Shown here one piece after another: positions 110-42,486 of a stretch of DNA of 42,486 nt. Source of the stretch: Candidatus Finniella inopinata. Lineage in GTDB: Bacteria > Pseudomonadota > Alphaproteobacteria > Paracaedibacterales > CAITNM01. Below the pieces are notes generated by a model. It searched no databases, was not told where the DNA came from, and saw nothing but the letters and a program-made list of their open reading frames with translations. Location: positions 1-42,486 of the forward strand of contig CAMASM010000003.1 of the NCBI GenBank assembly GCA_945860985.1. The letters run 5' to 3'. The first letter of the stretch is position 1, and each line of letters begins with the position of its first letter. Made by a program: the position numbers and the translations under genes.

Positions 110-1744
110 ATGTCATTTGTTTGGGTTTGTTTATTTTTTGTACTTAGTGGTTGCCGTGAAATGAGTAATCATCAGCCTGTAATGCCCAGATTTGATAGGC
201 TGGAGGCAAAGGAGTTGGCTAAACCTGTAGAGAATGTTGTACCTGATTCAGAGCGGGTAAAAGTTATTCAAAAGAAGGAGACTCAAAAGTTTCCAAAAGC
301 TATGTATAAGCTGGTATCAGTATCCGTTTCTGAAGGTATTCCTTTGAAAAACGTTTTTATTGAATTGGCACGGCAGGCTAATGTTGATTTGCAACTTGAT
401 ACGGCTATCGATGCAAAAATTATTTTTACAGCGCAAGATCGCCCGTTTATTGACATAATTAAGGCCATGTGTGAAATGGCAAATTTACGTTTCGATGTGA
501 TTGATAATGCCTTGCGTATTGAGCGAGATACGTTGTATCCACAAAATTATAATGTACAGTTTTTGAATTTATCGCGTTCGAGTGAGAATCAATTAACTGT
601 TGCGACTGATGTTTTTTCAAGTGTTGGTCCAGTGAAAGGGAATATTGGCGATAATGTTTCCAAAAGTGCTTTAAAGGCTACTACCAAAAATGATTTTTGG
701 GATGAGTTAGAGCAAAATCTGAAAACGATCGTTGAAACTAGTGATGAAAAAGGCTCCTATTCCATACATCGTCAGGCTGGACTTGTGTCGCTGCGTGCTA
801 ATCGTAAACAACATATACAGGTGGGGAAATACTTAGAACAATTACGTAAGGTAGCTTGTTGTCAGGTATTGATAGAAGCAAAAATAATTGAAGTAACTTT
901 AAAAGATGAATATAGAAGCGGTATTAATTGGCACGATATTGGTAATAAAGGAGATTTGAGGATAAAAGCTGATTTTGGAAATTTGGCTAACAAGAGTAGT
1001 TTTTTGGATCCGACTTCAGCACAAACCGACATGGTTAGCTTTGGAGCAAGTGGATCACGTTTTTCGGCAATTGCAAATATGCTGCAAGAGTTTGGTTTTG
1101 TTAGGACTTTATCAAGCCCTCGTCTTACTGTAATGAATAACCAAGCAGCCATTTTAAAAGTTGCCCAGAATAAAGTTTATTTCAGGCTTAACTATGACAA
1201 AATGTACAATTCCCAAAACTTTCGTGAAAGCACTACAGTTTCTAGCGATATTCAAACAGTGCCAATCGGCTTAATTATGATGGTGCAGCCATCTATAGAT
1301 CCGCAAACTGGGGAAATTATTTTGTTTTTGAGGCCTAGTATTTCTAGGTTGACTCAAACGGTAGCTGATCCTGCAGTTGATATTGCTTACAATGCCTCTG
1401 CTGTTGCTGGTGCTGAAAGGCAATCATCACCTACTCAGTCACTTATACCGGTTGTTGAAGTACGAGAAATTGATTCTGTGTTACGGTTAAATAATAAAGA
1501 AATGGCAGTTTTAGGTGGTTTAATGGAGGTTCGTTCTTCTGAACATAAGCAGGGTATTCCTGGCCTTGATGAAGTTCCTTTGGTGCGGGATTTAACAGGC
1601 AGCATTTCTGAAGGTGATACAATTGTAGAATTGGTTATTGTGTTAAAAGCAACAATTGTAGATAATGGGGCCATGCCGGATGGGGCGGATCAACGTTTAA
1701 TAGAAAAATACACAACTGATCCACGCCCATTAAATCCTCTTTAA
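110..1744 (+). CDS. Secretin of type II secretion/type IV pilus (GspD/MshL-like), probable lipoprotein
   Basis: Lipobox-like LSGC; secretin motifs QVLIEAKIIEV, LSSPRLTVMNNQAA, GGLM...GIPGLDEVPLV, ELVIVLKATIV. Confidence 0.9.
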   Translation: MSFVWVCLFFVLSGCREMSNHQPVMPRFDRLEAKELAKPVENVVPDSERVKVIQKKETQKFPKAMYKLVSVSVSEGIPLKNVFIELARQANVDLQLDTAIDAKIIFTAQDRPFIDIIKAMCEMANLRFDVIDNALRIERDTLYPQNYNVQFLNLSRSSENQLTVATDVFSSVGPVKGNIGDNVSKSALKATTKNDFWDELEQNLKTIVETSDEKGSYSIHRQAGLVSLRANRKQHIQVGKYLEQLRKVACCQVLIEAKIIEVTLKDEYRSGINWHDIGNKGDLRIKADFGNLANKSSFLDPTSAQTDMVSFGASGSRFSAIANMLQEFGFVRTLSSPRLTVMNNQAAILKVAQNKVYFRLNYDKMYNSQNFRESTTVSSDIQTVPIGLIMMVQPSIDPQTGEIILFLRPSISRLTQTVADPAVDIAYNASAVAGAERQSSPTQSLIPVVEVREIDSVLRLNNKEMAVLGGLMEVRSSEHKQGIPGLDEVPLVRDLTGSISEGDTIVELVIVLKATIVDNGAMPDGADQRLIEKYTTDPRPLNPL

Positions 1745-9863: not shown

Positions 9864-10523
9864 ATGAAAATGAAAAAATCTAAAATATTTATGATTGGGT
9901 TAAGTTTGGTTTCTTTAGGGGCAAGTTTAAACGCTAGTACATGTGTAGTTCCTAGTTATTGTAATCCTCCTAGTGGGCAACCAGGAATGTTTCCTGGTGG
10001 TCAACCAGGTATGGGTGGAATGATGCCACCATCAGGTATGCCAGGTATGGGACAACCAGGCGGAATGATGCCTCAAGGGGGGAATACTTGTGTACCAGCA
10101 GGTGGTGGTATGGGTGGAGCGTCAGGAATGTTTCCTGGAGGAATGCCTGGTGGTCAGCCAGGGATGATGCCACCACTAGGTGGACAACCTGGTATGGGTG
10201 GAATGATGCCACCAGGAGGTATGCCAGGTGGGCAATCAGGTGGAATGATGCCAGGAGGTGGCTGTCCTTATGGAATGGTTCCTGGTGGAGCACCAAGAAT
10301 GGGAGGTTGTCCCGGAATGATGCCAAGAGGTGGACAACCTGGTATGGGTGGAATGATGCCACCACCTCCAGGTATGGGGCGTCCTGGTGTGATGATGCCT
10401 AACGGACAATGTAATTGTGGTGCCCCTGGTGCTCCGGGGCTAAGAGCCCCAGCAAAAGGAATGGGTGGCGCTCCTTCAATGGGGCCTGCAAAAAAAAAAG
10501 GTAGACCTCCAAGACGACGATAG
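9864..10523 (+). CDS. Secreted Gly/Met/Pro-rich low-complexity protein; probably continues in the +1 frame to 10782 through an A10 run
   Basis: Signal peptide MKMKKSKIFMIGLSLVSLGASLNA; repeated GGQPGMGGMMPP units; A10 at 10490-10499. Confidence 0.75.
   Translation: MKMKKSKIFMIGLSLVSLGASLNASTCVVPSYCNPPSGQPGMFPGGQPGMGGMMPPSGMPGMGQPGGMMPQGGNTCVPAGGGMGGASGMFPGGMPGGQPGMMPPLGGQPGMGGMMPPGGMPGGQSGGMMPGGGCPYGMVPGGAPRMGGCPGMMPRGGQPGMGGMMPPPPGMGRPGVMMPNGQCNCGAPGAPGLRAPAKGMGGAPSMGPAKKKGRPPRRR
9996..10364 (+). repeat. Coding 36-nt repeats ggtgg(a/t)caacc(t/a)ggtatgggtggaatgatgccacca
   Basis: Copies at 9996, 10179 and 10329, all in frame (GGQPGMGGMMPP). Confidence 0.85.
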
Positions 10524-12992: not shown

Positions 12993-14392
12993 CCCGCTGG
13001 ACAAAAGATTCTTTAAAAACGGCTCTTGAGCTTGATATATCGTTTGATATCGCCTCTCACAACTTGTGTATTGATACGCGGCAGATTCAACGTGGCGATA
13101 TATTTATTGCAATTAAGGGTGCTAAAGATGGCCATGAGTACGTTAAGAAAGCATTTGAACAGGGGGCTGTTTGCGCAATTGTTGAGTATACCCCTGCTAA
13201 TATTAGTGATACTTCCAGACTAATTTACGTTGATGACACTTTAAAAGCACTTACTTCTTTAGGGATTTATGGAAGAAGTATGGCTAAAAAACTTAGGGCA
13301 ATTGCGGTTACAGGTAGTGTTGGTAAAACAACAACAAAAGAAATGCTGCGTTCAGTTTTGCATTGCTTTGGTCCTACAATTTATTCTAAGGCTAGTTATA
13401 ACAATTACCTTGGTGTGCCCTTAAGCTTGGCTTTACTAAGTAACGACAGCAAGTTTGGCGTTTTTGAGGTTGGCATGAATCATGTCGGAGAAATTGCTCC
13501 ACTTGCAAAAATTGTTGATCCAGAAATTGCAATTATTACTACAATTTCACCTTCACATATTGGCAACATGGGATCCTTAGAGGCAATAGTTGATGAAAAG
13601 TGTCAAATTTTTGCTGGGTTGCGTGAAAATGGCATAGCTATGGTGCATGGTGATCATCCTCTATTTGATCGTATGCAACGCAATGCCAAAGCGCATGGTG
13701 TACATAATATTTTTACAGTTGGATGTAAAGCTGGATTAGATGCGAGATTGCTACATTATCAGCCAGTGCAGCAAGGTACTAAAGGTCTGGTTACTGCTGA
13801 AATTTTTGGAAAAATTGTGGCTTATCCTTTGCAGTTCGCTGGTGAGCACTATGCTTTTAATAGTTTGTATGTATTGCTTACTGCAGAGGTGCTGGGTATT
13901 GATTTGGGTGAAACCATGCAGCAATTAGCGAAGGTTCAGCCAGTAATTGGCCGTGGACAAATGCATAATTTGCAATTGTCCAATGGCTTGCCAATTTTTG
14001 TGTTTGATGATGCATACAATGCCAATCCAACTTCGATGAAAGCTGGTTTAAAATCATTTTGCACTATGCAACATCAAGGTAAACGTATTGCGGTAATTGG
14101 ACAAATGGGAGAGTTAGGTGAACATAGCGATGCTTACCATATAGAAATTGCTCAATACATTAATAGCTTACCGCTAGATCGCGTTCATGTGGTTGGTTCC
14201 GCAGCAAAAGGCATGTACCAAGAAATTGATACGCAAAAGCGCGGTGAATGGTTTGCTACAGTTGACGATATGAAAACAAATTTTATTAATGAATTAACAG
14301 GGTATGAGAGTATTTTTTTAAAGGGATCGTTATCTCAAAAATTACAGGAACTCGTTGCTTTGCTTAAGAATCAGCTTAGGTCTGTAGCTTAG
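12989..14392 (+). CDS. murF: UDP-N-acetylmuramoyl-tripeptide--D-Ala-D-Ala ligase
   Basis: DTR, TGSVGKTTTKE, NNYLGVPL, EVGMNH, DDAYNANP.SM. Confidence 0.96.
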   Translation: MTRWTKDSLKTALELDISFDIASHNLCIDTRQIQRGDIFIAIKGAKDGHEYVKKAFEQGAVCAIVEYTPANISDTSRLIYVDDTLKALTSLGIYGRSMAKKLRAIAVTGSVGKTTTKEMLRSVLHCFGPTIYSKASYNNYLGVPLSLALLSNDSKFGVFEVGMNHVGEIAPLAKIVDPEIAIITTISPSHIGNMGSLEAIVDEKCQIFAGLRENGIAMVHGDHPLFDRMQRNAKAHGVHNIFTVGCKAGLDARLLHYQPVQQGTKGLVTAEIFGKIVAYPLQFAGEHYAFNSLYVLLTAEVLGIDLGETMQQLAKVQPVIGRGQMHNLQLSNGLPIFVFDDAYNANPTSMKAGLKSFCTMQHQGKRIAVIGQMGELGEHSDAYHIEIAQYINSLPLDRVHVVGSAAKGMYQEIDTQKRGEWFATVDDMKTNFINELTGYESIFLKGSLSQKLQELVALLKNQLRSVA

Positions 14393-15783
14393 GTTGATAC
14401 GTGAGCTATTTTTAGTTTTGTGCTGTTGGCACCATCACCAACTAGAAGATGCATTTCTTCATTAAACTCAACAATTTCAGCTTTTGCGGAACGCCCTTCT
14501 GCTGTGCGCACTAGTTCTTGGCAAACTACTGCTAGAATTTGTCCAGCTAGCAAATTAGGAGAGATGCCTAAATCAATTAAGCGTGCTGGCGCCACAAAGG
14601 GGCATGAGGCGTGGATTGTTGCTAAAACCAAGTGACCTGTCATTGAAGCTCTTAAAGCCATTTTAGCTGTATCTTCGTCTCGAATTTCGCCTATTAAAAT
14701 AACATCAGGATCATGTCTCAACATTGACCTAACTCCATCAGCGAAGTTAATTACTCCAGCTTCATGAATTTCTGTTTGGCGAACGCCATTAACTCTGTAT
14801 TCAATTGGTTGTTCAAGGGTCATAATGTTCTTTTTGCTGCTATCAAGTTCTTTTAAAAGTGCGTGTAATGTTGTTGTTTTTCCAGAACCAGTTGGTCCGC
14901 AAACTAAAAATAAACCGTAAGATTTGTTTACAAGTTTTGTCATTGCTTCAACTTGTGCGTTTGAAAACCCTAGTTCAATAAGTGATAAAACTTGCCGATT
15001 AGTTGGTAATAAGCGTATTACTAAGCTTTCCCCTAATGAGCATGGGTGGAAAGATGTGCGGCAATCAATTGGGCTTCCTTGAATGTTTAATGTGCATCCA
15101 CCTGATTGGGGCCGACGACGCTCTGCGATATCTAATTTTGCCAAAATCTTGAGGCGTACGCAGGTTTTTTCATAAATTTCTAATTCTAAATGTTGGTAAA
15201 TTATCAATTCACCATGAATGCGAAATTTAACAACAATCATTTGGTCTAATGGCACAAAATGAATGTCGGAAGCTTCTTTTAAAAAAGCTTCGCTTAAAAG
15301 GTTGCTAAATAAACTTTCAAAAGAGGCATCAAACCCTTCAGCTACAGGAGAGGCTGATTTTTGTAGTGCATATACGAATGCTTGTTTGTGTGTATTGTAA
15401 AACTTGCAAATAACTTTTTTTTCAAAAAGGTTTTCCGCAGATTTTTTTAAGATGTCTTGAACCAACACGTTTTCAGGGTCTAGCATTGCAATGTGCAAAA
15501 TGTTATCTAAACAAAATGGGATAGCTGAGTGCATTTTGCAAAATTCTTTGCCAAATTTAAAAATTAAATTACTGTCTATTGAAAAATTTTCTAAATCAAT
15601 ATATGGGTATCCCGTAATTTCACTAACAAACTCTCCCATAATTTTGGGTTGTACAAATCTTAAATCAACTAATATTTCACTTAAAAAAGCTTGGCTTTTT
15701 TGCTGCTGCATTAAGGCAATGTGCAGTTGATCTGGGGTAATAAGGCCCCTTTTTAAAAGTATTTCTTCAAAACCTGGTGACAA
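14389..15783 (-). CDS. GspE/PilB-family secretion ATPase
   Basis: N-terminal MshEN-like segment, ASDIH, LDIAERRRPQSG, GPTGSGKTTTL, LRHDPDVILIGEIRD, TGHLVLATIHA. Confidence 0.92.
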   Translation of the reverse strand: MSPGFEEILLKRGLITPDQLHIALMQQQKSQAFLSEILVDLRFVQPKIMGEFVSEITGYPYIDLENFSIDSNLIFKFGKEFCKMHSAIPFCLDNILHIAMLDPENVLVQDILKKSAENLFEKKVICKFYNTHKQAFVYALQKSASPVAEGFDASFESLFSNLLSEAFLKEASDIHFVPLDQMIVVKFRIHGELIIYQHLELEIYEKTCVRLKILAKLDIAERRRPQSGGCTLNIQGSPIDCRTSFHPCSLGESLVIRLLPTNRQVLSLIELGFSNAQVEAMTKLVNKSYGLFLVCGPTGSGKTTTLHALLKELDSSKKNIMTLEQPIEYRVNGVRQTEIHEAGVINFADGVRSMLRHDPDVILIGEIRDEDTAKMALRASMTGHLVLATIHASCPFVAPARLIDLGISPNLLAGQILAVVCQELVRTAEGRSAKAEIVEFNEEMHLLVGDGANSTKLKIAHVST

Positions 15784-18856: not shown

Positions 18857-19612
18857 TTATTTTTTTTTACCTTTTCTTAAGCTTGGGAAACAACCGCAGC
18901 ATTCCCCATCTTCAATTGCTTGTAGCAATTTTGATACGGCAGCTGATGCGGCGTCTGATGCTTTAGAAAGTCCAAGGTATGAAACATTTACCAGCTTAGC
19001 AATTGTTGGTGTAAATGTTTTTGCTACAGAAATAATTTCAGACTGATGATCTTTTGCTAAGCTTCCAACAGAAGATAAAGAAGCTGGCAAAGCCTTGAAT
19101 AGTTCGCCTAAAAGTAATGGTAAATCTTTATCCATAGTTTCTTTCACAAAAGCCTCACAATTTTTAAGGTCAGCTAGGGCGCTTAATTCTCTTTCGGTTG
19201 TGTCTATGGTATTAATTATCTTTCCAAAAGCTGTATATACTGCGTTTTTATCATCGAAAAAATTTGCAAGTTTTGGAAAATCACCAGGGCTTTGGCGCAC
19301 CCATGCAGCAAGTGATTCGCACATTAGGTATGAAAAATCAGCCCAATATAATTTTTTGTGGCTGTCTCCGCCAATTATACCACCACTAGACAGTAGGTAT
19401 CCGGTAATTTTAAATACGGAACTTTGAGTGCCATCTCTTGAGAAATCTAAAACACACTGTTGCATTGGCATTCTAGCAGCAGGAGTTCTAGCAGCGTCTA
19501 AGATATCATCTACTATTCTTAATTCGACTACTTCATGTGCTGCTGCTGATAGTGCTGCTATACTTAAGCTAAATAATATTAGTGTGTATGTTTTAGTAAA
19601 AAAATTCTTCAT
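18857..19612 (-). CDS. Secreted hypothetical protein with Cys-cluster/polybasic C-terminus
   Basis: ATG 19612 with SD tggaga; signal peptide MKNFFTKTYTLILFSLSIAALSAA; ends ECCGCFPSLRKGKKK. Confidence 0.8.
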   Translation of the reverse strand: MKNFFTKTYTLILFSLSIAALSAAAHEVVELRIVDDILDAARTPAARMPMQQCVLDFSRDGTQSSVFKITGYLLSSGGIIGGDSHKKLYWADFSYLMCESLAAWVRQSPGDFPKLANFFDDKNAVYTAFGKIINTIDTTERELSALADLKNCEAFVKETMDKDLPLLLGELFKALPASLSSVGSLAKDHQSEIISVAKTFTPTIAKLVNVSYLGLSKASDAASAAVSKLLQAIEDGECCGCFPSLRKGKKK

Positions 19613-19682
19613 AACGTTTCTCCACATTTTAAAAGTTAAAACAAAACCAGTTGGTTTCAATGTTTATTCTCAGTTAAAAATA

Positions 19683-19697
19683 TTAAAATATTGTTAA
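19683..19697 (-). promoter_or_regulatory. CtrA-type box TTAA-N7-TTAA
   Basis: Reads ttaacaatattttaa on the minus strand, about 70 bp upstream of ATG 19612. Confidence 0.65.
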
Positions 19698-19761
19698 CCA
19701 GAGATATTTATATGGTCCTATTGATTTTTTTATTTCACTTATGGTTTGAAATAGCTTATAT

Positions 19762-19783
19762 AATCCCGCCAAGTGACGGGATT
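19762..19783 (-). terminator. Hairpin (probable terminator) after the 19794 gene
   Basis: aatcccgcca-ag-tgacgggatt. Confidence 0.55.
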
Positions 19784-19793
19784 CGTTTTTCCT

Positions 19794-20204
19794 TTATTTG
19801 TGGCGTGTTTGACAATGGCATTTTGCTGTGTATCCAGATTCTAATTCCTCTATGAAGTTGGTCATATCTTTGCTTCGTGCTATGTGAACCTTCTTTATTA
19901 GTTCTATAGCGGCCTTAATTTGTTTACTTGTAGAACCAAACGGTGTGCAGGATTCTTCTTTTTTTGTTCTAACAATGGGATTGCCTTCACATATTGCTAT
20001 TTCCGTTACGCCTTCTTTGCTAATGAAATATGCTCGTTCTTTTGCAATTAAAATTTTCCAGGCGTTGCATTTAAATTTAGTGGTGCTTCTTACAACACAG
20101 TGGGTGTCATATTCATCATCACAATCAGAAGAAGGATATATAACGGTTGTGGCTAAGCAAAAAGCCAGCAAAAATATATAATTTTTAATGTTAAAGTTTT
20201 TCAT
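19794..20204 (-). CDS. Secreted Cys-rich hypothetical protein, paralog of 21721..22197
   Basis: ATG 20204 with SD ggag; signal MKNFNIKNYIFLLAFCLATTVIYPS; Cys/Trp pattern shared with the 21721 protein. Confidence 0.8.
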   Translation of the reverse strand: MKNFNIKNYIFLLAFCLATTVIYPSSDCDDEYDTHCVVRSTTKFKCNAWKILIAKERAYFISKEGVTEIAICEGNPIVRTKKEESCTPFGSTSKQIKAAIELIKKVHIARSKDMTNFIEELESGYTAKCHCQTRHK

Positions 20205-20274
20205 AAAGTTCTCCATATCATATGTTGGCAAAATAAAATTAATAAGGTATAATTATTATTTTTGCTTAAATACA

Positions 20275-20289
20275 TTAAAATATGGTTAA
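20275..20289 (-). promoter_or_regulatory. CtrA-type box TTAA-N7-TTAA
   Basis: Reads ttaaccatattttaa on the minus strand, about 70 bp upstream of ATG 20204. Confidence 0.7.
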
Positions 20290-20351
20290 TCTAAAATATA
20301 TATACTAAGATTGACTATGTTTATACTTAGTAAAATTTTAGTAAGGGTGTG

Positions 20352-20500
20352 ATACTATTTCCCGAAAATACCATTAAGCAAAATGGATTCCCGCCGGAGT
20401 TTATCCTCGACCCGATCGGGGACGGGAATGACATAATTACCGCTGTTTTTGTCATTCCCGTGAAAACGGGAATCCACAATGAAAAATCGGGAAAGGGTAT
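20352..20500. repeat. REP/dRS3-like palindrome doublet inside a small MITE-like element
   Basis: tggattcccg...cgggaatgac (20384-20432) and gtcattcccgtgaaaacgggaatcca (20451-20476) in inverted orientation; outer arms atactatttcccga / tcgggaaagggtat. Confidence 0.8.
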
Positions 20501-20518
20501 AATTTTGTATTTGTGTAG

Positions 20519-20917
20519 TTAACAACAGCAAAGTCTTTTTAAGCAATTTCTCAAACATTGTGGTATGCACCATAAAAGGCAACATTCTGGTTGAGGGTCA
20601 GTAGTTTCTGCATGCTTAATCAATGTACTGCTTGCAGTAGGAACGTGAGTGGGTGGAAAAGTGTCGTATGTTTGCCCGGAAGCCATTAGTCCTCTTATTG
20701 TTACTTGTTTTATTATTTGCTGCATTAAGCCTACGCTTATGGCTTTGTCACTACTTATTGTGAATCCTCCTCCTTCGTGAAATTCAATCTTAAAATCTTT
20801 GTTTATTACCGTTTCTATTATTGCATGTCTGCGTGATTCCATGTCATCTTCTGATGTGTACAGGGATGTAAGGCTAAAACAAATAAACAGTGGTATAAAT
20901 AGGTGATAACTAGTCAT
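20519..20917 (-). CDS. Secreted hypothetical protein with Cys-rich C-terminus
   Basis: SD ggag; hydrophobic N-terminus; ends CCLLWCIPQCLRNCLKRLCCC. Confidence 0.75.
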   Translation of the reverse strand: MTSYHLFIPLFICFSLTSLYTSEDDMESRRHAIIETVINKDFKIEFHEGGGFTISSDKAISVGLMQQIIKQVTIRGLMASGQTYDTFPPTHVPTASSTLIKHAETTDPQPECCLLWCIPQCLRNCLKRLCCC

Positions 20918-21168
20918 AGATGCTCCAAATACTTGACGAAGTGGTGGAATTTTGATGTTGTTATTTTCAAATTTGACAACAAATTTTGATTTATATCTTT
21001 TAAGATATTGCAGAATTATTTGTAATTGTCGATGGTTTTTGTAACCTGGGGAGCTAATTTTTTAAACTTATATTCTTTATAAACAAATCAATAAACTTAG
21101 CGTATGAAAAATAAACCACAGACTTCCTGTCATAGTTTATGTTATTTGTAATAGAGTTAATGAATAAT

Positions 21169-21615
21169 TTACTCAAATAGCCATTTTAAAGGCCGTGGTA
21201 TTAAACTAGAAAACCAGCATTTCTTTTTTTTGTGAGGGCTAAGCTTACAATTGCTTGTGCTATCGTCACTATCACTATCATCACACTCGGAGTCGCTTGA
21301 CAGTATGTCGTCTGATCTTCTGTAGCGTTCAATTTCACGTAAGGCCACTTCGTCCATGAGTTTTATGGTGCTAAGTAATTTAATTGTTAACCCTTCGCAT
21401 AGTTCTTGGTAACAAGTTATTTTAGTGGTTATCTTATGTGGGCCGAGATATTCCCTGATAACTTCAAATTTATCGCAATCTTCGTCATTTGTTATGCGCA
21501 TTTGCAAGAATTTACTACATGCTTCATCATTTTCAAAAGGTGTTTCGCACCCATACACGCATGAAAAACTCAAACAAACAAGTAATATAAATGAATGGAA
21601 AATAGTTTTTTTCAT
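21169..21615 (-). CDS. Secreted (possibly lipoprotein) hypothetical protein with acidic Ser/Asp tract and basic-aromatic tail
   Basis: SD aaggag; signal MKKTIFHSFILLVCLSFSCVYG-C; ends KKKKCWFSSLIPRPLKWLFE. Confidence 0.78.
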   Translation of the reverse strand: MKKTIFHSFILLVCLSFSCVYGCETPFENDEACSKFLQMRITNDEDCDKFEVIREYLGPHKITTKITCYQELCEGLTIKLLSTIKLMDEVALREIERYRRSDDILSSDSECDDSDSDDSTSNCKLSPHKKKKCWFSSLIPRPLKWLFE

Positions 21616-21676
21616 AAATGCTCCTTATTTAATTATTAAAAAAAATAAAAACTAGAACTTATTTTCTGGTTTCAAG

Positions 21677-21702
21677 AAGATCCCACCATTTGGCGGGATC
21701 TT
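21677..21702 (-). terminator. Hairpin (probable terminator) after the 21721 gene
   Basis: aagatcccacca-tt-tggcgggatctt, similar to the 19762 hairpin. Confidence 0.6.
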
Positions 21703-21720
21703 TTGTTTTTGACTGGTTTA

Positions 21721-22197
21721 TTAGTCGCAGTCTCTTCTAGGTTTTGTAGGACATGGGCACTTTTCATATTCTGAAATTAGTTGCTCAAAGTAACATTTGG
21801 TGAATCTACTATTTGCAGCACATAGAACTTTTAGTAGATGTATTGCTTGAACTGTTTCTTTTTGTGTTTGTTTGGTAATACATCCATGTGAATCAATTGT
21901 TACTGTTCCGCAATGGCCTAATTTTACACTTAATAGACCACTTATATAAGATCCGCTACAGTCGCTATTTAACACTGCTGTCCATTTACAAGTATTTGGT
22001 GCTACGTATTCTGGTTCCTCAATACATGGTAGAGGCTTCACTACTGGCTTAGTAGGTGGCTTAGAAGGCCTGCCACATGATAACATATCATCTGTCATGT
22101 CGCCGCCGCCTTGGTAGCGTCCTGATGAGTAAGCAGCAGTTGTGCCAAGACAAACAGCTAATAATAGTACGATATTTTTAATTCTAAAGTTTTTCAT
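21721..22197 (-). CDS. Secreted Cys-rich hypothetical protein, paralog of 19794..20204
   Basis: ATG 22197 with SD ggag; signal MKNFRIKNIVLLLAVCLGTTAAYS; Pro-rich linker then Cys-rich domain. Confidence 0.8.
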   Translation of the reverse strand: MKNFRIKNIVLLLAVCLGTTAAYSSGRYQGGGDMTDDMLSCGRPSKPPTKPVVKPLPCIEEPEYVAPNTCKWTAVLNSDCSGSYISGLLSVKLGHCGTVTIDSHGCITKQTQKETVQAIHLLKVLCAANSRFTKCYFEQLISEYEKCPCPTKPRRDCD

Positions 22198-22264
22198 TTT
22201 ATTCTCCATATAAATTAAGTTAATAAAGATCGTCTGATCCAATTGTTATTATGGAGATAAATTA

Positions 22265-31160: not shown

Positions 31161-31751
31161 CTATAGGCCAAAATCATCTTTAAAACTATTTTTAAGGGCT
31201 AAAGGCAAAACTGTTTCAAAAGTGTAATGAGAGTTGTTAATGTTTAGGCTTACTTCATTATTTAAAAAATCATTAACTTGCTCAGCTGAAAGTAACCATT
31301 TCAAAAAATGTACTGACGAAGTTTTTTGATCGGATTCTCGATTACGCTCTGTTGTTGGGTCAATGCTAAATGCTGAAATCTTGTTGTTTTTCCAGGTGAA
31401 GCTAATATGTTGATCGATTCCAAATAGTTGTTTTAAGACTACCTGGCGGCGTATTGGGTCGTCTATTTCTATCATCATCGTTGCTGAAATTTCATAACCA
31501 TTTTGTCCGTTTACAGGCATCAAAGGGTTGTAAGCGCGAAGCTCGTCATCTATTTGGGCTTCTCCGCCTTTTTCAATGCGTAGCATTTCTTGAATTTGCC
31601 ACCAAATTGTTTGAATGTTTTCGAAATAAAATGTGATATCTGGGCCAACTGCTAAGCGACGTATTCTTTTTAAAAGCAAAATTTCCTGCTTTTTAGCCTC
31701 TCTTACACACTCGAATTCATGTAATGACAAAATATCAATACTAGTCAGCAT
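31161..31751 (-). CDS. DUF3501 family protein
   Basis: GP..TFYFEN..T.WWQIQEMLRIEKGG, EL.AYNPL.P, K.SSVHFL. Confidence 0.85.
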   Translation of the reverse strand: MLTSIDILSLHEFECVREAKKQEILLLKRIRRLAVGPDITFYFENIQTIWWQIQEMLRIEKGGEAQIDDELRAYNPLMPVNGQNGYEISATMMIEIDDPIRRQVVLKQLFGIDQHISFTWKNNKISAFSIDPTTERNRESDQKTSSVHFLKWLLSAEQVNDFLNNEVSLNINNSHYTFETVLPLALKNSFKDDFGL

Positions 31752-36446: not shown

Positions 36447-36950
36447 ATGAAAGTAAATAGCGCAATATTAATTATTTTTACGATTTTTTGTAGAGTATCT
36501 TTTTGTACTTCCCTTGATTTTGTAATTGATATAGACGATGAAAAACCCAGAGCTTGCATAAAAAATAACTGGGTTAGAGAAACAGAATTATCAGTGAATA
36601 AGAATCATATTAACAGTAGAGTAATCAGTCTGCTCTCGCGGCGGTGGTTTTGTAGAAAACTAGCTAATATTAGTGAGGTTGGGGGAAACACCTTGTTTCA
36701 TTGTAGCACTGGACTTTTTATAATTTCTGGTGGCTCTATTAGCCTTTTTCCACCTTTAACAAATTACTTTTTTTTGGCGAGTACGGTTTGTAGCGCTTTG
36801 AATTTAGTTTTAATAGGATTAGCGAGGTATTCTTCAAGTAAGGTTGAAGAAATTGAAATAGAACTTAATGCATTGGGTAAGAGAACAGGATTTTTTGTAA
36901 CAACTTTAACTCCCAAAATTACTAATGATAGAGCCAGTAGCTCAAAATAA
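36447..36950 (+). CDS. Signal-peptide plus 2-TM hairpin protein, paralog family with 39736 and 40476
   Basis: Shared V..L...RW..RK.AN..E..GN.L, two hydrophobic helices, IGLA+.SS..., L..L....GF.V..L.P.I. Confidence 0.8.
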   Translation: MKVNSAILIIFTIFCRVSFCTSLDFVIDIDDEKPRACIKNNWVRETELSVNKNHINSRVISLLSRRWFCRKLANISEVGGNTLFHCSTGLFIISGGSISLFPPLTNYFFLASTVCSALNLVLIGLARYSSSKVEEIEIELNALGKRTGFFVTTLTPKITNDRASSSK

Positions 36951-37059: not shown

Positions 37060-37090
37060 TTACCAAAATAGTGTATTTTTGAAATTTAAA

Positions 37091-38479
37091 ATGTTTAAAA
37101 TATTTTTATTAAAGTCTTTGTTGGTTATCATCTTTTTTCAAGGCGCTGTATCTTTTTTGGTTGCAGCTGAAGTTTGTTACTTTCCCAGTGATTTAGGGCT
37201 TAGGGGGGACACTGCAACAGTTAAATTTTATCATACGGCATCTGTTTTTGTTTCTGCTGACGATGCCTTTCGGAATCTGATGGATGCAGGTAAGGATACG
37301 ACAGGTGTTAGTTGTCGTGAGTCTGATGGCAAATCTTTTCGTATAGATAAAGGTTACTCAAGTGTTGTTATTTATAGCTTGTATCAACTAACTGATCATA
37401 CACCTAACTCTATTTATGATACAAAGGCTGGTAAAATTTACGTATATCGATTAGGCGATAAAGCTATTAAATACCATGGGGAAGGGGAATATGCTGAATC
37501 TATTGATTTCACAACAAGCTCTAAAATGCACAAACCTCCGCAGTGTGCAAGAGTTAAATATCCTAAGTTGATTAAAGACATTAGTGGTTCAGACACTGTA
37601 GTTATTACTTTTGGGGCAGGTATTTCAGACGGATTTGTTCCAACACTCATAGAGTTTATGGAAGGTATAGGACTTGAAAAAATGCCGTCGCATGATAGAG
37701 CCACTGAAGATAGTTTCCAAAGTTTTATTCATAGTTTGTTTGCAGATCAAAGTAGCATTAGTCGTGTAGGTGGTATATGGGGCACTATATTCAATTGTAA
37801 GCACGAGGTAACCCCTGCTCACAAAGCTTTGTTTGAAATAATCAATATACTTAGGTGGTCAAAAAAAGAAGTCTATGTTTACACAGATAACGTCGATCGC
37901 ATTCACCATAAAGTAGGAATTAAAATTTCTGATTTACATCCTGTCTCGTCTGAATTTCCCGTAAAAGATTTGAAGGATAGAAATGTGGTGGTTTTGGCCT
38001 GTGGACAATCTTTTGATTTTCAAGGAGTCCTTACTGCTATTAATTCATTAGATGAAGGATGTGCAAACATTAAATTTTATTCTTTGAATACTAAGCCGGA
38101 TTCTATTCTTGTTTATGACGACTGTAAAAAAGATAAAGATGGCAACATAATTGATTATGACGCTGATAAATACCATTATTTAGATATGGGTTGGATAGAA
38201 GGTCCTCTTGGTAAAACACTTCCAGAGATTGAATGGTTGCTTCGAGTTGAAAGGGCTATTAACCAGATCCTGTGGCCTATTCAAAGCAAAGAAACACTCT
38301 GGCTTCAAAGAGTATTCCAATGTTTCTATTCTAGAAATCCAATAACTATAGTGCTTTCAAAAGAAGACGTGAGTGAATTGCAGCAATTGGGACAAATTTG
38401 GGCGGAATTACATAAATATGCTGCAAGCTATGGCAGATATGGAAGAAGGCCATTGGCTGCCAGCAGATTATTGAAATAG
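37091..38479 (+). CDS. Secreted protein with a divergent SIR2/sirtuin domain
   Basis: Signal MFKIFLLKSLLVIIFFQGAVSFLVA; ordered sirtuin motifs VITFGAGIS...PT, TPAHKAL, YTDNVDRIHHKVG, DLHP, VVLACGQS, YSLN. Confidence 0.75.
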   Translation: MFKIFLLKSLLVIIFFQGAVSFLVAAEVCYFPSDLGLRGDTATVKFYHTASVFVSADDAFRNLMDAGKDTTGVSCRESDGKSFRIDKGYSSVVIYSLYQLTDHTPNSIYDTKAGKIYVYRLGDKAIKYHGEGEYAESIDFTTSSKMHKPPQCARVKYPKLIKDISGSDTVVITFGAGISDGFVPTLIEFMEGIGLEKMPSHDRATEDSFQSFIHSLFADQSSISRVGGIWGTIFNCKHEVTPAHKALFEIINILRWSKKEVYVYTDNVDRIHHKVGIKISDLHPVSSEFPVKDLKDRNVVVLACGQSFDFQGVLTAINSLDEGCANIKFYSLNTKPDSILVYDDCKKDKDGNIIDYDADKYHYLDMGWIEGPLGKTLPEIEWLLRVERAINQILWPIQSKETLWLQRVFQCFYSRNPITIVLSKEDVSELQQLGQIWAELHKYAASYGRYGRRPLAASRLLK

Positions 38480-38543: not shown

Positions 38544-39524
38544 TTAGCAGCAGCCATGGCATCTAGCAAGATCTCGCCATAACCAAGAGAAGAATCTAAC
38601 AGATATGGCATTTAGCAAGGTTCCTAGATAACCAGGTTGAGGATGTAAGAGAGATAAATCTGCCCCGGCTTCTTTAAGGATTGGTCTAACTCTTTCTAAG
38701 AATGTATCTTCCACAATAGGTTCTCTCCCTTCGCCAGTAGCCCATTTACGGTAATCAAGCCACTGCTTCCTATAAAGCTCAGCATGCGAGGTTCTTTGAC
38801 CATTAGCACGTTTATACCGCACACGATTCACACTACTCCAGCAATTTGAAAAAGTTTCGTGACACCCGAACTTGGGTTTGAGGAAAGATATTTTTGGGGC
38901 AAGATATCTAAGAGTGAGTCTTTTGAAGAAAGGAAGAGCTGATTCTACTTGACGTCTAAGGTCTGCATGCTTGCTATCACTATGAATCACTTCCCAATAG
39001 CTTTTTAAAATGATACTACGTCTTCTCTGCGTTAAAAATTCTGCCGCTTCAGTGCAAAACGCATATAAATCAGCAGAAGGAGCCTCGGTAAGGAAGCTAT
39101 TTGCTTGAAAATGTGGATTGGCTGCGTTGCATAATTCCCATAGGAAGCTTTCGGCAAAAACAAGCAAATTGTTATGGTTTTGGGATATTAGAATCTCTTT
39201 TGTTTGCGCGTGCCAGCATGCACCAGTTCTCGTTTCTCCAATTCTTAGAGCAATTGTTCCATGCAACCCTGTAACATCTTCTAGCAATTTTTGAGCCAAA
39301 GTGCTGATGCTCAGTGAGCTGAGAAACCTAATGGTTGAGTCAGGTATGTCTGCCTCTACTTGAACACAGCCTAGAATAAGGCGCGAAGTAGCAACTGAAG
39401 GTGAAGCTGCTGCAGCTGCAGCAGCTGATGACGTCGGCCTAAAATCAGCAGATTCCTCTGCTAAGCACGCTGCGCTCAGTGAAACCGTAAGTAAACTCAT
39501 AAAGAGTAACATTTTATTAAACAT
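38544..39524 (-). CDS. Secreted hypothetical protein, possible zincin-like fold with degenerate HExxH
   Basis: SD aaggag; signal peptide, poly-Ala linker; GACW....KEILIS, FLWELCNAAN, YAFCTEAAE; ends RCHGCC. Confidence 0.75.
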   Translation of the reverse strand: MFNKMLLFMSLLTVSLSAACLAEESADFRPTSSAAAAAAASPSVATSRLILGCVQVEADIPDSTIRFLSSLSISTLAQKLLEDVTGLHGTIALRIGETRTGACWHAQTKEILISQNHNNLLVFAESFLWELCNAANPHFQANSFLTEAPSADLYAFCTEAAEFLTQRRRSIILKSYWEVIHSDSKHADLRRQVESALPFFKRLTLRYLAPKISFLKPKFGCHETFSNCWSSVNRVRYKRANGQRTSHAELYRKQWLDYRKWATGEGREPIVEDTFLERVRPILKEAGADLSLLHPQPGYLGTLLNAISVRFFSWLWRDLARCHGCC

Positions 39525-39686: not shown

Positions 39687-39735
39687 GATCTGTGTGTGAG
39701 TCTATAATCACAGGATTTAACGTTTGGTGAACACA

Positions 39736-40335
39736 ATGATACTAAAATACAAATTTTTTGCACTTGTTACGAGCATAGGGATAGCAGGGCTTTTTGGCAC
39801 TTCAGCAGGGAATGAAGTGCTAGAGATGGTTGATAAGGCTACAAGAAAAGTAGATCATGTTATAGAAATGGGTAAGCTTGATGGTCCAAAACACCATGAT
39901 GCTCGTACACATTTAGGTGAGGTGAGATCCAAAGAAATTGTTGGATTACTTGAGCAAGACCATGAAGATAACGTGAAAGATCTTATCAAGTACAGGTGGT
40001 GTTTTAGAAAATGCGCTAACTTTACAGAAGCTTTTGGTAATGGACTTTTGTATTTGGGATCTGGTCTTGCAACTATTGCTGGTGGCGTAAAGATGGTTGG
40101 TTCTGATCACGTGTCTAATATTCTTCTTTTTACTAGTACTGTATGCTTTGCGGGGCACGTTACTTTAATTGGTTTAGCTAAATGTAGTTCAAGAGAAGAA
40201 AGAGAACGTGAAAATCAACTTGATAAGCTAGCGGATGCTGTTGGTTTTTCAGTGACAGCTTTAAATTGTCCTATAGTGGATGAGGATGACGGTAAGGGGG
40301 CAGCACATAGTTCTGCTCTAGCAAAAGTTGTTTGA
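39736..40335 (+). CDS. Signal-peptide plus 2-TM hairpin protein (paralog 2)
   Basis: EDNVKDLIKYRWCFRKCANFTEAFGNGLLY...NILLFTSTVCFAGH...REERERENQLD; start 39724-39736 uncertain. Confidence 0.82.
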   Translation: MILKYKFFALVTSIGIAGLFGTSAGNEVLEMVDKATRKVDHVIEMGKLDGPKHHDARTHLGEVRSKEIVGLLEQDHEDNVKDLIKYRWCFRKCANFTEAFGNGLLYLGSGLATIAGGVKMVGSDHVSNILLFTSTVCFAGHVTLIGLAKCSSREERERENQLDKLADAVGFSVTALNCPIVDEDDGKGAAHSSALAKVV

Positions 40336-40426: not shown

Positions 40427-40475
40427 TGATATTAGCTCAGCATTTAGGTAGCTCTCCAATTTACATTTAGATGTG

Positions 40476-41072
40476 ATGAAAATAAAAAAATTATTTTTGG
40501 CATTGGCCGCTGCTACACTAATTATAAATTTGCCATTGGTGGCAGCTGATCCATTTGGGCCAAGATGTGGGCCATTTGGGACACCGCTACCTGATGAAAT
40601 CTCAAGTCCTCCTAGATTAGCACAATGTGGTGCATTAGAGAAAAAAGGCCACGAAGCTAATGTAATTTCACGAGCCAGTAGGGTAGTTAGTGCATTAGAG
40701 AAAGACTATGAAGATAATGTAAGTTCACTAATTCGAAGTAGGTGGATTTTTAGAAAAAGCGCTAATGTGGCTGAGGTACTTGGTAATGGCTTTTTGTATA
40801 TTGGAGCTGGGTCTTCAACAGTTGCTGGTGGAGTAGCAATGGTGGGTTCTCAGAGTATAGCCAATATACTTCTTTTCTCTAGTACAGTATGCTTTGCTGC
40901 GCACATAATCTTTATAGGTTTTGCGAAATGTTGTGCACGAGAAGAAAGGGAAAGGGAAAAACAATTGGACGCATTGGCCAAGAGGATTGGCTTTTCCGTA
41001 ATTCCCTTAGAACCCATAATAACAGACGATGCTTTAGGTTCAAATGATGTCAAAACTAAAGCGGATGTTTAG
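40476..41072 (+). CDS. Signal-peptide plus 2-TM hairpin protein (paralog 3)
   Basis: EDNVSSLIRSRWIFRKSANVAEVLGNGFLY...NILLFSSTVCFAAH...REEREREKQLD. Confidence 0.85.
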   Translation: MKIKKLFLALAAATLIINLPLVAADPFGPRCGPFGTPLPDEISSPPRLAQCGALEKKGHEANVISRASRVVSALEKDYEDNVSSLIRSRWIFRKSANVAEVLGNGFLYIGAGSSTVAGGVAMVGSQSIANILLFSSTVCFAAHIIFIGFAKCCAREEREREKQLDALAKRIGFSVIPLEPIITDDALGSNDVKTKADV

Positions 41073-41165: not shown

Positions 41166-41410
41166 TACGTAACGCGGTGGGCAAGTTTTTTAAAAATCTT
41201 TGATTTACCCAACTTAGTGTATTTCGACGTCCCGCGGCCCAGACCGCGAGATCTAGTTCGATCATTTCATAATTTAATGACGACATAATTTATTCTTTTT
41301 TGGTTTTTTGTGTCAATGTACCAGATAACCATTGGATCCCGCGGTCTGGGCCGCGGGACGTCGGTTATCGTTGTGGAGGTTAAATTAAAACTTGCACGCG
41401 GCGTTACGTA
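41166..41410. mobile_element. About 245-bp MITE with terminal inverted repeats and an internal palindrome doublet
   Basis: tacgtaacgcggtgggcaagtttt ... aaaacttgcacgcggcgttacgta, TA at both ends; internal cgacgtcccgcggcccagaccgcgagatc (41225) / gatcccgcggtctgggccgcgggacgtcg (to 41363); relative at 22430-22890. Confidence 0.85.
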
Positions 41411-42340
41411 TAATTCAGCCAAGTCAAAGCTGGATGTTCTATCCCAGTTATATCACAAATAATTTCTGAAATAGCTTGCAGTCCGTTATCACTATTAGTA
41501 AATATCAAGATAGCTCCACCATTTTTAAACCCAGCTACATAGCTTTGGAAGCCTTGATTATGACCCCAATGCCAGAAGGATATACCATTTGTTGTTTCTT
41601 GAAGTCCCCATCCAAGCCCCCATGAAACAGATGGCGAAAGAGTTCCTGTGCATTTATCGACACAAATACAAATGGGTCCATCAATTTCGACATTGATTTG
41701 GGACGATAACATTTCATTTATTGTTTTTTCCTGAAGGCCATTATTTTTGATAATAGCTTGAATAAATTTAGCGTAATCCAATACCGTAGTATGCAGGGAA
41801 GAAGCTGCATTAGCTTTTAAAGTCAAAAGTCCGGCAGAATCGTACCCGTAAGCTTTGTTGTCTTCAGGCTTTCTAGATAAGTAACTACTATGTGTCATGC
41901 CAAGAGGAGAGAGTACATTCTTCTGCATATATTCCTCAAGGGATTGTCCTGATAATTTCTCAATGACTTTTTGCAAATAAACAAAACCCTCTCCTGAATA
42001 ACTAAATCTACTTCCTGGCTGAAAATGTATTATTAATTCGTTATTTTGCCTCCAGTTTGGAAACCCTGTTGCGTGGCTTAAAACCGTTCTTGCCGTGATA
42101 AATTCAAGCTTTTGATCATTTTTAACGTCGTCATACTGAAAATAATCAGATAATGGAGTGTCTAAATCTATTAGCCCATTTTCAACCATCTTTAGAACAC
42201 CATAAGTAAATACTGGCTTACTTAGGGAAGCGGCTTCAAAAATCGTATTTTTATCAATAGCATTAGGGGGAGTAATACTTTTTAAACCATAATACTTTAG
42301 AGACGTTATATTGCTATCTTCAATAAAAGCAAGAGATAGG
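41404..42340 (-). pseudogene. Serine hydrolase (beta-lactamase/AmpC-like family), 5' end interrupted by IS30
   Basis: FEAASLSK (SxxK), LSHATG, PGSRFSYSG, HWGHN.G; family-like sequence starts abruptly at GLSLAFI next to the IS end. Confidence 0.8.
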
Positions 42341-42486
42341 CCACATTCAAGTTCGAAGTGCAACACGGTGTAAATTTTCATTAAAGGCCTCAAGAGGAGT
42401 TAACCATCCCAAAGATTTTCTGGGTGTTGTATTGTAATTTTCCATGACTTCATCAAATTCCTCTTGTTTCATATTTTTCACATCTG
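42339..42486 (-). mobile_element. IS30-family element, right end (runs off the window)
   Basis: Terminal sequence ggccacattcaagttcgaagtgcaacac overlapping the transposase stop codon. Confidence 0.85.
42347..42486 (-). CDS. IS30-family transposase, C-terminal 45 aa (partial; absent from the ORF track)
   Basis: Minus-strand translation from 42484: DVKNMKQEEFDEVMENYNTTPRKSLGWLTPLEAFNENLHRVALRT*, the IS30 N..PRK.LG..TP.E...VAL signature. Confidence 0.88.
   Translation of the reverse strand, partial: DVKNMKQEEFDEVMENYNTTPRKSLGWLTPLEAFNENLHRVALRT

Follow-up and report, generated by a model that had tools for sequence, protein, structure and literature searches.

A family of sirtuin-like proteins that lack the zinc module, many with predicted signal peptides, includes a protein of Candidatus Finniella inopinata

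Introduction

Three described classes of sirtuin-fold proteins lie closest to the product of the gene examined here, which occupies positions 37091-38479 (+) of a 42,486-nucleotide stretch of DNA (hereafter the window) from Candidatus Finniella inopinata (contig CAMASM010000003.1, assembly GCA_945860985.1). Canonical deacylases such as CobB, SIRT5, Sir2-Af1, Sir2-Af2 and PfSir2A (Pfam PF02146) carry a zinc module, which the available text of PMC12700824 describes as required for deacetylation. SIR2_2 or SIRim proteins (ThsA, DSR2, Avs5 and FAM118; PF13289) act in defence as cytoplasmic effectors and are accompanied by partner genes or domains; the same text treats these zinc-less proteins as NADases and as the probable ancestral form. 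For ThsA, the accessible portion of a preprint reports that N113 is essential, that a His binds ribose, that D115 binds the amide, and that T112, at the position before the Asn, lines the nicotinamide-riboside pocket (bioRxiv 10.64898/2026.03.01.708072). In FAM118B, a His, a nearby Asp, an Asn and an aromatic residue have been proposed as the drivers of cleavage (PMC12700824, available text). The third class, SirTM (SpySirTM, PDB 5a3a), has no catalytic His. The available text of PMC4518038 reports no appreciable deacylase activity for this protein, a need for N118 and, despite the missing His, robust target-specific ADP-ribosyltransferase activity.

Here we describe a real and apparently undescribed variant of the sirtuin kind, represented in the window by protein P0001; its structure and family are established here, whereas its export, activity and target are inferred. 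The open-access literature, surveyed without supplements, yielded no description of this family, whether as signal-peptide sirtuins of Holosporales, as zinc-less and His-less sirtuins, as secreted Sir2 effectors or through its Wolbachia member. The word 'sirtuin' is absent from the main text of PMC11077975 and of PMC11909080, the second of which places Finniella and Odyssella species in the cytoplasm of protists in its available text. A preliminary description of the gene, made from its letters, had proposed a secreted sirtuin with a deleted zinc-binding subdomain.

Results

A divergent protein with a sirtuin fold

The open reading frame (ORF) encodes 462 amino acids plus a stop codon. The gene is present as a single copy in the assembly, and its GC content (36.5%) is close to that of the genome (37.6%). 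An alternative in-frame TTG start at 37079 would add four residues, but the closest relative, P0002, opens with the same MFKIFLLKSL.

Taken alone, P0001 is a borderline sirtuin. Its match to the Pfam SIR2 profile (PF02146; E 0.0079, 16.6 bits) falls below the 24-bit cut-off, which is passed by two of 21 relatives. A phmmer search of the PDB returns four matches, all to SIRT5, at E ~0.7, and no family is matched in PADLOC or NCBIfam. A full-library phmmer search with P0001 yielded 32 proteins at E<=0.001. A 25-row family alignment was built without a motif filter. The profile of this alignment matches SIRT5 at E 1.9e-11, and the best 60 of its 107 matches in the PDB are all canonical sirtuins. 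Similarly, the AlphaFold model of P0001 (pLDDT, the score of the predicted local distance difference test, 82.5) is closest in fold to Sir2 proteins at Z 15-16, led by PfSir2A (3u31; Z 15.7, root-mean-square deviation (rmsd) 4.9, 191 aligned residues) and Sir2-Af1 (1ici; Z 15.1, rmsd 5.2, 198 aligned). Foldseek recovers SIRT5 with this model at E 2.3e-6. Because the profile of the relatives and the model both go beyond chance, unlike the single sequence, we regard the sirtuin identity as settled. As modelled, P0001 has a sirtuin Rossmann fold with a helical subdomain, and profile, model and fold matches together delimit a minimal SIR2-fold domain at residues 151-391 (37541-38263). The preliminary description, which had read a SIR2 fold from short motifs and suggested such a structural comparison, was correct on this point.

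Pocket residues are retained in the absence of the zinc module

The sirtuin motifs of P0001 are located where they had first been recognized. The cofactor loop GAGIS...PTL (37613-37648, with GAGIS at 37613-37627 and PTL at 37640-37648) lacks the Phe-Arg of the canonical PxFR sequence. It is followed by TPAH, which includes H244 (37811-37822; PAHKAL spans 37814-37831), and by TDNVD (37883-37897), in which N267 and D269 are invariant and D266 occupies the canonical Gln position. Further downstream are GQSFD with G305 and D309 (38003-38017; GQS at 38003-38011) and SLN with N333 (38081-38089). A 35-residue linker (37898-38002) stands in place of the His-bearing strand, the zinc module and the FGE loop. 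This linker contains the sequence DLHP (37931-37942), which includes H283 (37937-37939); LHP is followed by 20 residues before GQS begins.

Motif spacings were counted directly, because a MAFFT alignment of the family with canonical sirtuins was misaligned across the missing module. From 121 proteins, 112 were scored (22 close, 7 of a middle group and 83 distant) and nine fragments were left out. The distance from the Asn of NxD to the Gly of GxS is 38 residues in P0001 and 31-62 in the 112 family proteins, compared with 83-92 in CobB proteins of the same class, in which the His follows the Asn by 17-19 residues and one or two CxxC motifs lie between (23 of 25 parsed). No CxxC is present in P0001 or in any of the 112 proteins, and the FGE or FGQ loop found in 22 of 23 CobB proteins is absent from P0001. 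Given the short Asn-to-Gly spacing and the lack of CxxC, we conclude from these sequences that the zinc module and the FGE loop are absent across the whole family, as had been noted for P0001.

The DLHP sequence had been equated with the catalytic His motif, and this assignment is not supported. Although H283 is located at N267+16, near the CobB spacing (N+17 to N+19), its neighbour is Pro, and the model shows coil and no strand at residues 276-290, with a pLDDT of 62 for 281-290. A His at N+16 occurs in two of the 22 close relatives and in 7 of 174 non-redundant members, and an HG pair within N+13 to N+21 occurs in four of the 174. The position is variable, with Gln in 6 of 174. H283 was rejected as a catalytic His at the family level because it is not conserved; a role in P0001 alone is possible. 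The PxFR cofactor loop is likewise lost, given that FR or an aromatic residue is kept in 5 of 112 family proteins compared with 25 of 25 CobB proteins.

In contrast to these losses, the residues of the NAD pocket are kept among proteins that share as little as ~20% identity. G175, G177, S179, N267, D269, G305, D309 and N333 are invariant in the unfiltered 25-row alignment. G175, S179, N267, D269, G305 and D309 are present in 112/112 proteins and H244 in 111/112, in a set whose inclusion rule included G175, S179, N267 and D269 and not G305, D309 or H244. The position of N333 is Asn in 97 of these proteins and Asp in the other 15. The canonical Gln that precedes the Asn is replaced by Asp or Glu in 104/112: Asp in 21 of 22 close relatives (P0020 is the exception) and Glu in 83/83 distant proteins. 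These counts were taken from the protein sets because the pattern used to scan metagenomes contained Glu, which biases the Glu count from metagenome loci. Judged by sequence, residues of the NAD pocket are retained while the usual His and PxFR helpers are lost.

Comparison with the described classes

P0001 resembles canonical deacylases in its Rossmann sirtuin fold with helical subdomain and in its GAGxS, PxxAH, TxNxDxxH..G and xN motifs, and these proteins are its best matches in both sequence and fold. It differs from them in the missing zinc module, FGE loop, HG motif and PxFR loop, in the change of Gln to Asp (Asp or Glu in the family), and in the addition of a signal peptide and an extra N-terminal domain. 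The earlier view that P0001 is not a deacylase of the CobB type is upheld by the absence of these features. With SirTM the family shares the missing catalytic His and the retained Asn, and the fold match (Z 13.6, rmsd 4.3, 184 aligned) makes SirTM the best precedent for a mode of action. Unlike this family, SirTM keeps the zinc module and an invariant QG, and it is tied to a macrodomain and a GcvH-L operon, neither of which recurs near family members.

The SIR2_2 proteins, for which the comparison set comprised 11 of 22 loci, also lack a zinc module and have the Asn and Asp of NxD. Moreover, it is their GYSxxD motif, rather than the GTS of CobB, that aligns without gaps with the GQSFD or GLxxDE of the family. 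However, SIR2_2 proteins keep TTN(Y/F)D and a distal HG His at N+42 to N+64 (7/11 parsed), which the family lacks. The entire Asn-to-Gly segment of P0001 (38 residues) is shorter than the SIR2_2 Asn-to-His distance (42-64), and the Asn-to-Gly distance in SIR2_2 proteins is 80-147. The strand listing of the P0001 model, from which sheet membership cannot be read, shows fewer core strands than the seven-stranded SIR2_2 sheet and none at the His position. Fold scores are lower with this class (EfAvs5 Z 9.1, PsSIR2 8.7, KomC 8.2), and profile-profile comparisons favour CobB for both the close branch (E 8.2e-12 vs 6.7e-8 for SIR2_2) and the distant branch (E 1.4e-21 vs 8e-11). PADLOC SIR2 profiles give weak matches in up to five of 32 distant members (best E 7.6e-5). 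The proposed likeness to defence NADases is correct for the zinc-less layout; beyond this it is weaker than had been stated, given the missing HG His and the better scores against canonical deacylases.

In an unrooted tree from a quick search (74 rows, 124 columns), the family falls outside both the canonical clade (SH-like approximate likelihood ratio test, SH-aLRT, 97.6) and the SIR2_2 clade (96.8), and the branch that separates it from both has an SH-aLRT of 30.4 in the raw tree. These sequences settle neither whether the family is monophyletic nor whether the zinc module was lost or never present. Since the zinc-less form seen in SIR2_2 is regarded as the ancestral one (PMC12700824, available text), the original description of the zinc subdomain as 'deleted' is not established. 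The family belongs to none of the three classes, as each has a defining feature that was looked for here and found to be missing.

Distribution of the family and predicted signal peptides

A profile of the distant members recovers 83 proteins, and a metagenome scan added 160 further stretches, of which 80 were kept. The close and distant branches match each other in profile-profile comparison at E 2.4e-29. Named members come from Finniella, Odyssella, other Alphaproteobacteria, Holosporales, Wolbachia of Folsomia candida, Simkaniaceae, Parcubacteria and one record labelled Pacearchaeota. The database entries include one from the Wolbachia of Folsomia candida (WP_110409909.1 / APR98465.1), recorded as a 'SIR2 family protein' or as hypothetical, and one from Parcubacteria (OQB44022.1), and all such names derive from automatic annotation. 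The Wolbachia and Parcubacteria entries have the same layout and sirtuin-domain motifs as the branch of P0001, with N-terminal domains that are not detectably related to those of that branch. The names suggest a restriction to host-dependent lineages, on the strength of a handful of labels in a family whose members are mostly unnamed.

Family members occur in 3 of 401 genomes of the class, including the source genome, after removal of a match in genome G130 that proved to be an ordinary CobB. A flag for a TAA codon in genome G011 reflects no broken gene, as the frame is open for 408 residues. Viral contigs gave one weak match (E 3e-5) and plasmids gave two, of which the one inspected is an ordinary CobB-like gene. 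In the ESM Atlas, residues 155-395 retrieved unnamed compact clusters (222-273 amino acids; Actinomycetota, Bacteroidota and viruses) that score 0.90-0.95 by features, and these may represent further zinc-less sirtuins in free-living bacteria. One distant member, P0073 (564 amino acids), is fused at its C terminus to a CYTH domain (PF01928), a nucleotide-processing fold; this is a single case.

Signal peptides were called by a hand-made rule instead of SignalP. Among full-length members, the rule was passed by 17 of the 22 close ones, all 6 of the middle group and 45 of the 62 distant ones. Thus, 68 of 90 full-length members outside the branch resembling the candidate phyla radiation (CPR) have the signal pattern, compared with 190 of 963 ORFs of the source genome. 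The signal peptide given in the preliminary description is borne out by this rule for P0001 and for most relatives, but not for the Parcubacteria-like branch (0/11). In P0001, the predicted Sec signal peptide comprises residues 1-26 (37091-37168), with a basic start, a hydrophobic core and likely cleavage after V-A-A. Sequence inspection detected no twin-arginine or lipobox pattern in P0001 and no transmembrane stretch after residue 26.

Regions flanking the sirtuin domain

Residues 27-150 (37169-37540) form a beta-rich N-terminal domain that is poorly conserved. Its presence had been noted, but its length is ~125 residues rather than the ~150 given, and residues ~56-80 are an insertion peculiar to P0001. 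Modelled alone, the domain reaches fair confidence (pLDDT 79.7). It has no Foldseek match at E<=0.001 and no usable ESM Atlas match, and its best Z among 48,161 chains is only 3.9; the lack of a match is no proof of a new fold. Profile similarity between the N-terminal domains of the close and distant branches was not found. At the other end of the protein, a 71-residue helical tail (residues 392-462; 38264-38476), which is absent from the preliminary description, is modelled with lower confidence and is clearly common only to P0001 and P0002.

Genomic context

No recurring partner or immunity gene was found in 91 family loci, many of which are short. The neighbour cluster met most often, which reads as an ABC-type protein, occurs at eight of the 91, and other clusters come mostly from near-identical loci. 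Likewise, no metabolic or transporter gene recurs beside family members in these loci, and no defence context was found for the family. Upstream of one family member by 2-3 kb lie Hcp-like and TssE-like type VI genes (by reading; L003:1466-2596), which were not seen at other loci.

In the window, the sirtuin gene has on its two sides a set of three small paralogues (36447-36950 (+), 39724-40335 (+) and 40473-41072 (+); 35-49% identity). Their products have hydrophobic N-termini and a common hydrophobic core and belong to no Pfam family. These paralogues are confined to this locus in the assembly and were not found next to other family members. Convergent with the sirtuin gene is a single-copy gene (38544-39524 (-)) for a 326-residue protein that begins like a signal peptide, contains an Ala-rich linker and has no match above noise in PADLOC, Pfam or NCBIfam.

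The source genome (1.66 Mb, 97% complete) contains no match to PF13289. It also lacks a canonical sirtuin, and none was found above the cut-off in 41 related genomes, compared with 27 of 61 genomes in the class. A weak SIR2 match on contig C47 (E 0.006) was dismissed as a chance match across a stop codon inside phage head-tail-like genes. The same contig (L019; G000 contig C47:2602-5844) carries capsid and head-tail genes that, by reading, resemble those of a phage or gene-transfer agent. Neither NAD synthase nor nicotinate phosphoribosyltransferase was found in this genome, and the sole cytidylyltransferase-like match is a 147-residue ORF that, by reading, is unlike NadD. A full-length TLC nucleotide translocase is present on contig C4, and two further, partial matches to this translocase lie on opposite strands of contig C78:201-1488 in the same genome (G000). 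On the basis of its named relatives, the missing NAD synthesis genes and the TLC translocase, the source organism is probably a Holosporales-like symbiont that imports NAD+.

Genes related to export include a secretin (PF00263) at 110-1744 (+) in the window, a T2SSF gene on contig C55 and the type VI secretion gene VipB. A GspE/PilB-like ATPase, by reading, is encoded at 14389-15783 (-). The secretin, ATPase and T2SSF protein may form part of a type II secretion system or of a type IV pilus system. A run of five consecutive ORFs at 18857-22242 (-), each of 132-267 residues, is a possible exported-protein cluster: all of them start like signal peptides, several have a C-terminal end rich in Cys, and none has a Pfam match. 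Also encoded in the window are a 219-residue protein that has a signal-like start and repeats rich in Gly, Pro and Met and is encoded upstream of ATP synthase F0 genes (9864-10523 (+)), a DUF3501 protein (31161-31751 (-); PF12007, E 1.6e-47) and a serine hydrolase of the beta-lactamase fold (41404-42393 (-); PF00144, E 1.5e-38) that scores far under every named class C beta-lactamase cut-off.

Discussion

We tentatively favour the hypothesis that P0001 is an exported, His-independent and target-specific mono-ADP-ribosyltransferase that acts on an acceptor in the host or the envelope, while recognizing that it is less likely than not. According to this hypothesis, the Sec pathway would deliver the protein to the periplasm, and its onward transfer to the cytoplasm of the host may use the type II-like system. 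The GAGxS, GxSxD and xLN loops would bind NAD+, D269 would grip the amide of nicotinamide, and N267 would stabilize the oxocarbenium ion as nicotinamide departs. The side chain of the canonical Gln binds the ribose 3'-OH, and D266, which takes this position (Glu in the larger branch), could assume the ribose-hydroxyl contact of the lost His. This role is proposed for D266 from its position in the sequence. With the module missing, the cleft would lie open to an acceptor, which the variable N-terminal domain might select. Targeting of the host cell, which the preliminary description had put forward, is plausible as a prediction. A target-specific enzyme is preferred over bulk destruction of NAD because no partner or immunity gene recurs in the 91 loci, because members without a signal peptide, which are likely cytoplasmic, exist, and because NAD synthesis genes were not found whereas a TLC translocase is present.

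Several observations weigh against this hypothesis. A Sec signal alone stops at the periplasm, short of the host, and the Parcubacteria-like branch has no signal peptide in any of 11 members. The gene is patchy among relatives, occurring in 6 of 41 related genomes, with the source genome included. SirTM has an invariant Gln in place of its His, whereas the equivalent position is variable in this family, and no macrodomain (PF01661) was found in the 97% complete source genome. The seven-member middle group has Ser, Gly or Ala before the Asn, and P0020 also lacks the acid. The His and the aromatic-Arg pair of the cofactor loop, which in other sirtuins are both connected with the cleavage of NAD (PMC12700824, available text), are missing, which would also fit a dead enzyme. 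Finally, transhydrogenase domain III nearly equals the sirtuins as a fold match (Z 14.3, rmsd 2.8, 142 aligned).

This domain binds nucleotides and belongs to the fold class of the sirtuins. The loss of two catalytic helpers together with its score, which falls no more than 1.4 Z below that of the top sirtuin, makes a binding-only protein a serious rival, even if we consider it somewhat doubtful. P0001 would then be an exported, non-catalytic binder of NAD+ or ADP-ribose, serving as a sensor, sink or carrier, and may assist a symbiont that depends on NAD in capturing or sensing host NAD+. The retained residues are largely NAD-binding, and NAD synthesis genes were not found in the nearly complete genome. 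However, the catalytic Asn is invariant and its adjoining acid is kept in 104/112 proteins, no transporter gene recurs alongside, and the signal-less members do not fit a periplasmic carrier. The protein could instead be exported to deplete the host of NAD+ or to produce ADP-ribose, as an NAD+ glycohydrolase or a base-exchange enzyme that works like zinc-less defence SIR2 proteins, which was the main analogy of the preliminary description. NAD glycohydrolases typically use an acidic residue at the ribose, which D266 or Glu could provide; the G-x-x-x-D(-D/E) motif aligns without gaps with SIR2_2 GYSxxD, a few distant members weakly match PADLOC SIR2 profiles, and export would spare a producer that has no immunity gene. 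We nevertheless judge this activity unlikely, because the distal HG His is absent, profiles and folds favour canonical sirtuins (E 1.4e-21 vs 8e-11; Z 15.7 vs 8.2-9.1), the genome has no PF13289 match, no defence context was found, members with neither signal nor partner would risk self-poisoning, and bulk loss of NAD is hard to reconcile with an organism that likely imports NAD+.

A function at home rather than in the host is less probable again. A periplasmic housekeeping enzyme of reduced genomes, working on a small nucleotide in NAD-related salvage or clean-up, would agree with a Sec signal that ends in the periplasm, with the spread of the family over unrelated reduced-genome lineages whose secretion systems differ or are unknown, with the single copy of the gene, and with the finding of no canonical sirtuin in 41 related genomes. 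The presence of the gene in no more than 6 of the 41 relatives, its location at sites that are unrelated, a fast-changing N-terminal domain and the lack of a recurring metabolic neighbour argue against such a function. We give hardly any credence to a divergent but true NAD-dependent deacylase that uses H283 as its catalytic base. H283 is one residue short of the CobB spacing (16 vs 17), and the nearest sequence and fold matches are deacylases; however, the zinc module on which deacetylation depends (PMC12700824, available text) is missing together with the FGE and PxFR loops, and a His at this position is rare (2/22 close, 7/174 overall).

A broader proposal, which we offer as speculation and consider unlikely to hold in full, is that this family stands next to the zinc-bearing deacylases and the SIR2_2 NADases as a third lineage of sirtuins: minimal, zinc-less and His-less, with an acid beside the Asn. 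Such a lineage would be common to unrelated host-dependent bacteria (Holosporales, Rickettsiales, Chlamydiae and CPR) and would supply an exported ADP-ribosylating host effector whose interchangeable N-terminal domains pick the target.

The family bears on the kinship of zinc-less and zinc-bearing sirtuins, as its first half is deacylase-like and its fourth-strand motif is SIR2_2-like. It also raises a mechanistic question, namely whether a sirtuin without the zinc module and the His can cleave NAD+ by means of an acid beside its catalytic Asn. Several members are labelled 'NAD-dependent deacetylase' without having the deacylase machinery, which is likely an annotation error. With a recognisable active site, the family is a concrete candidate that could be assayed within a week and, if the favoured hypothesis is true, would represent a mode of symbiont action on hosts that has so far gone undescribed.

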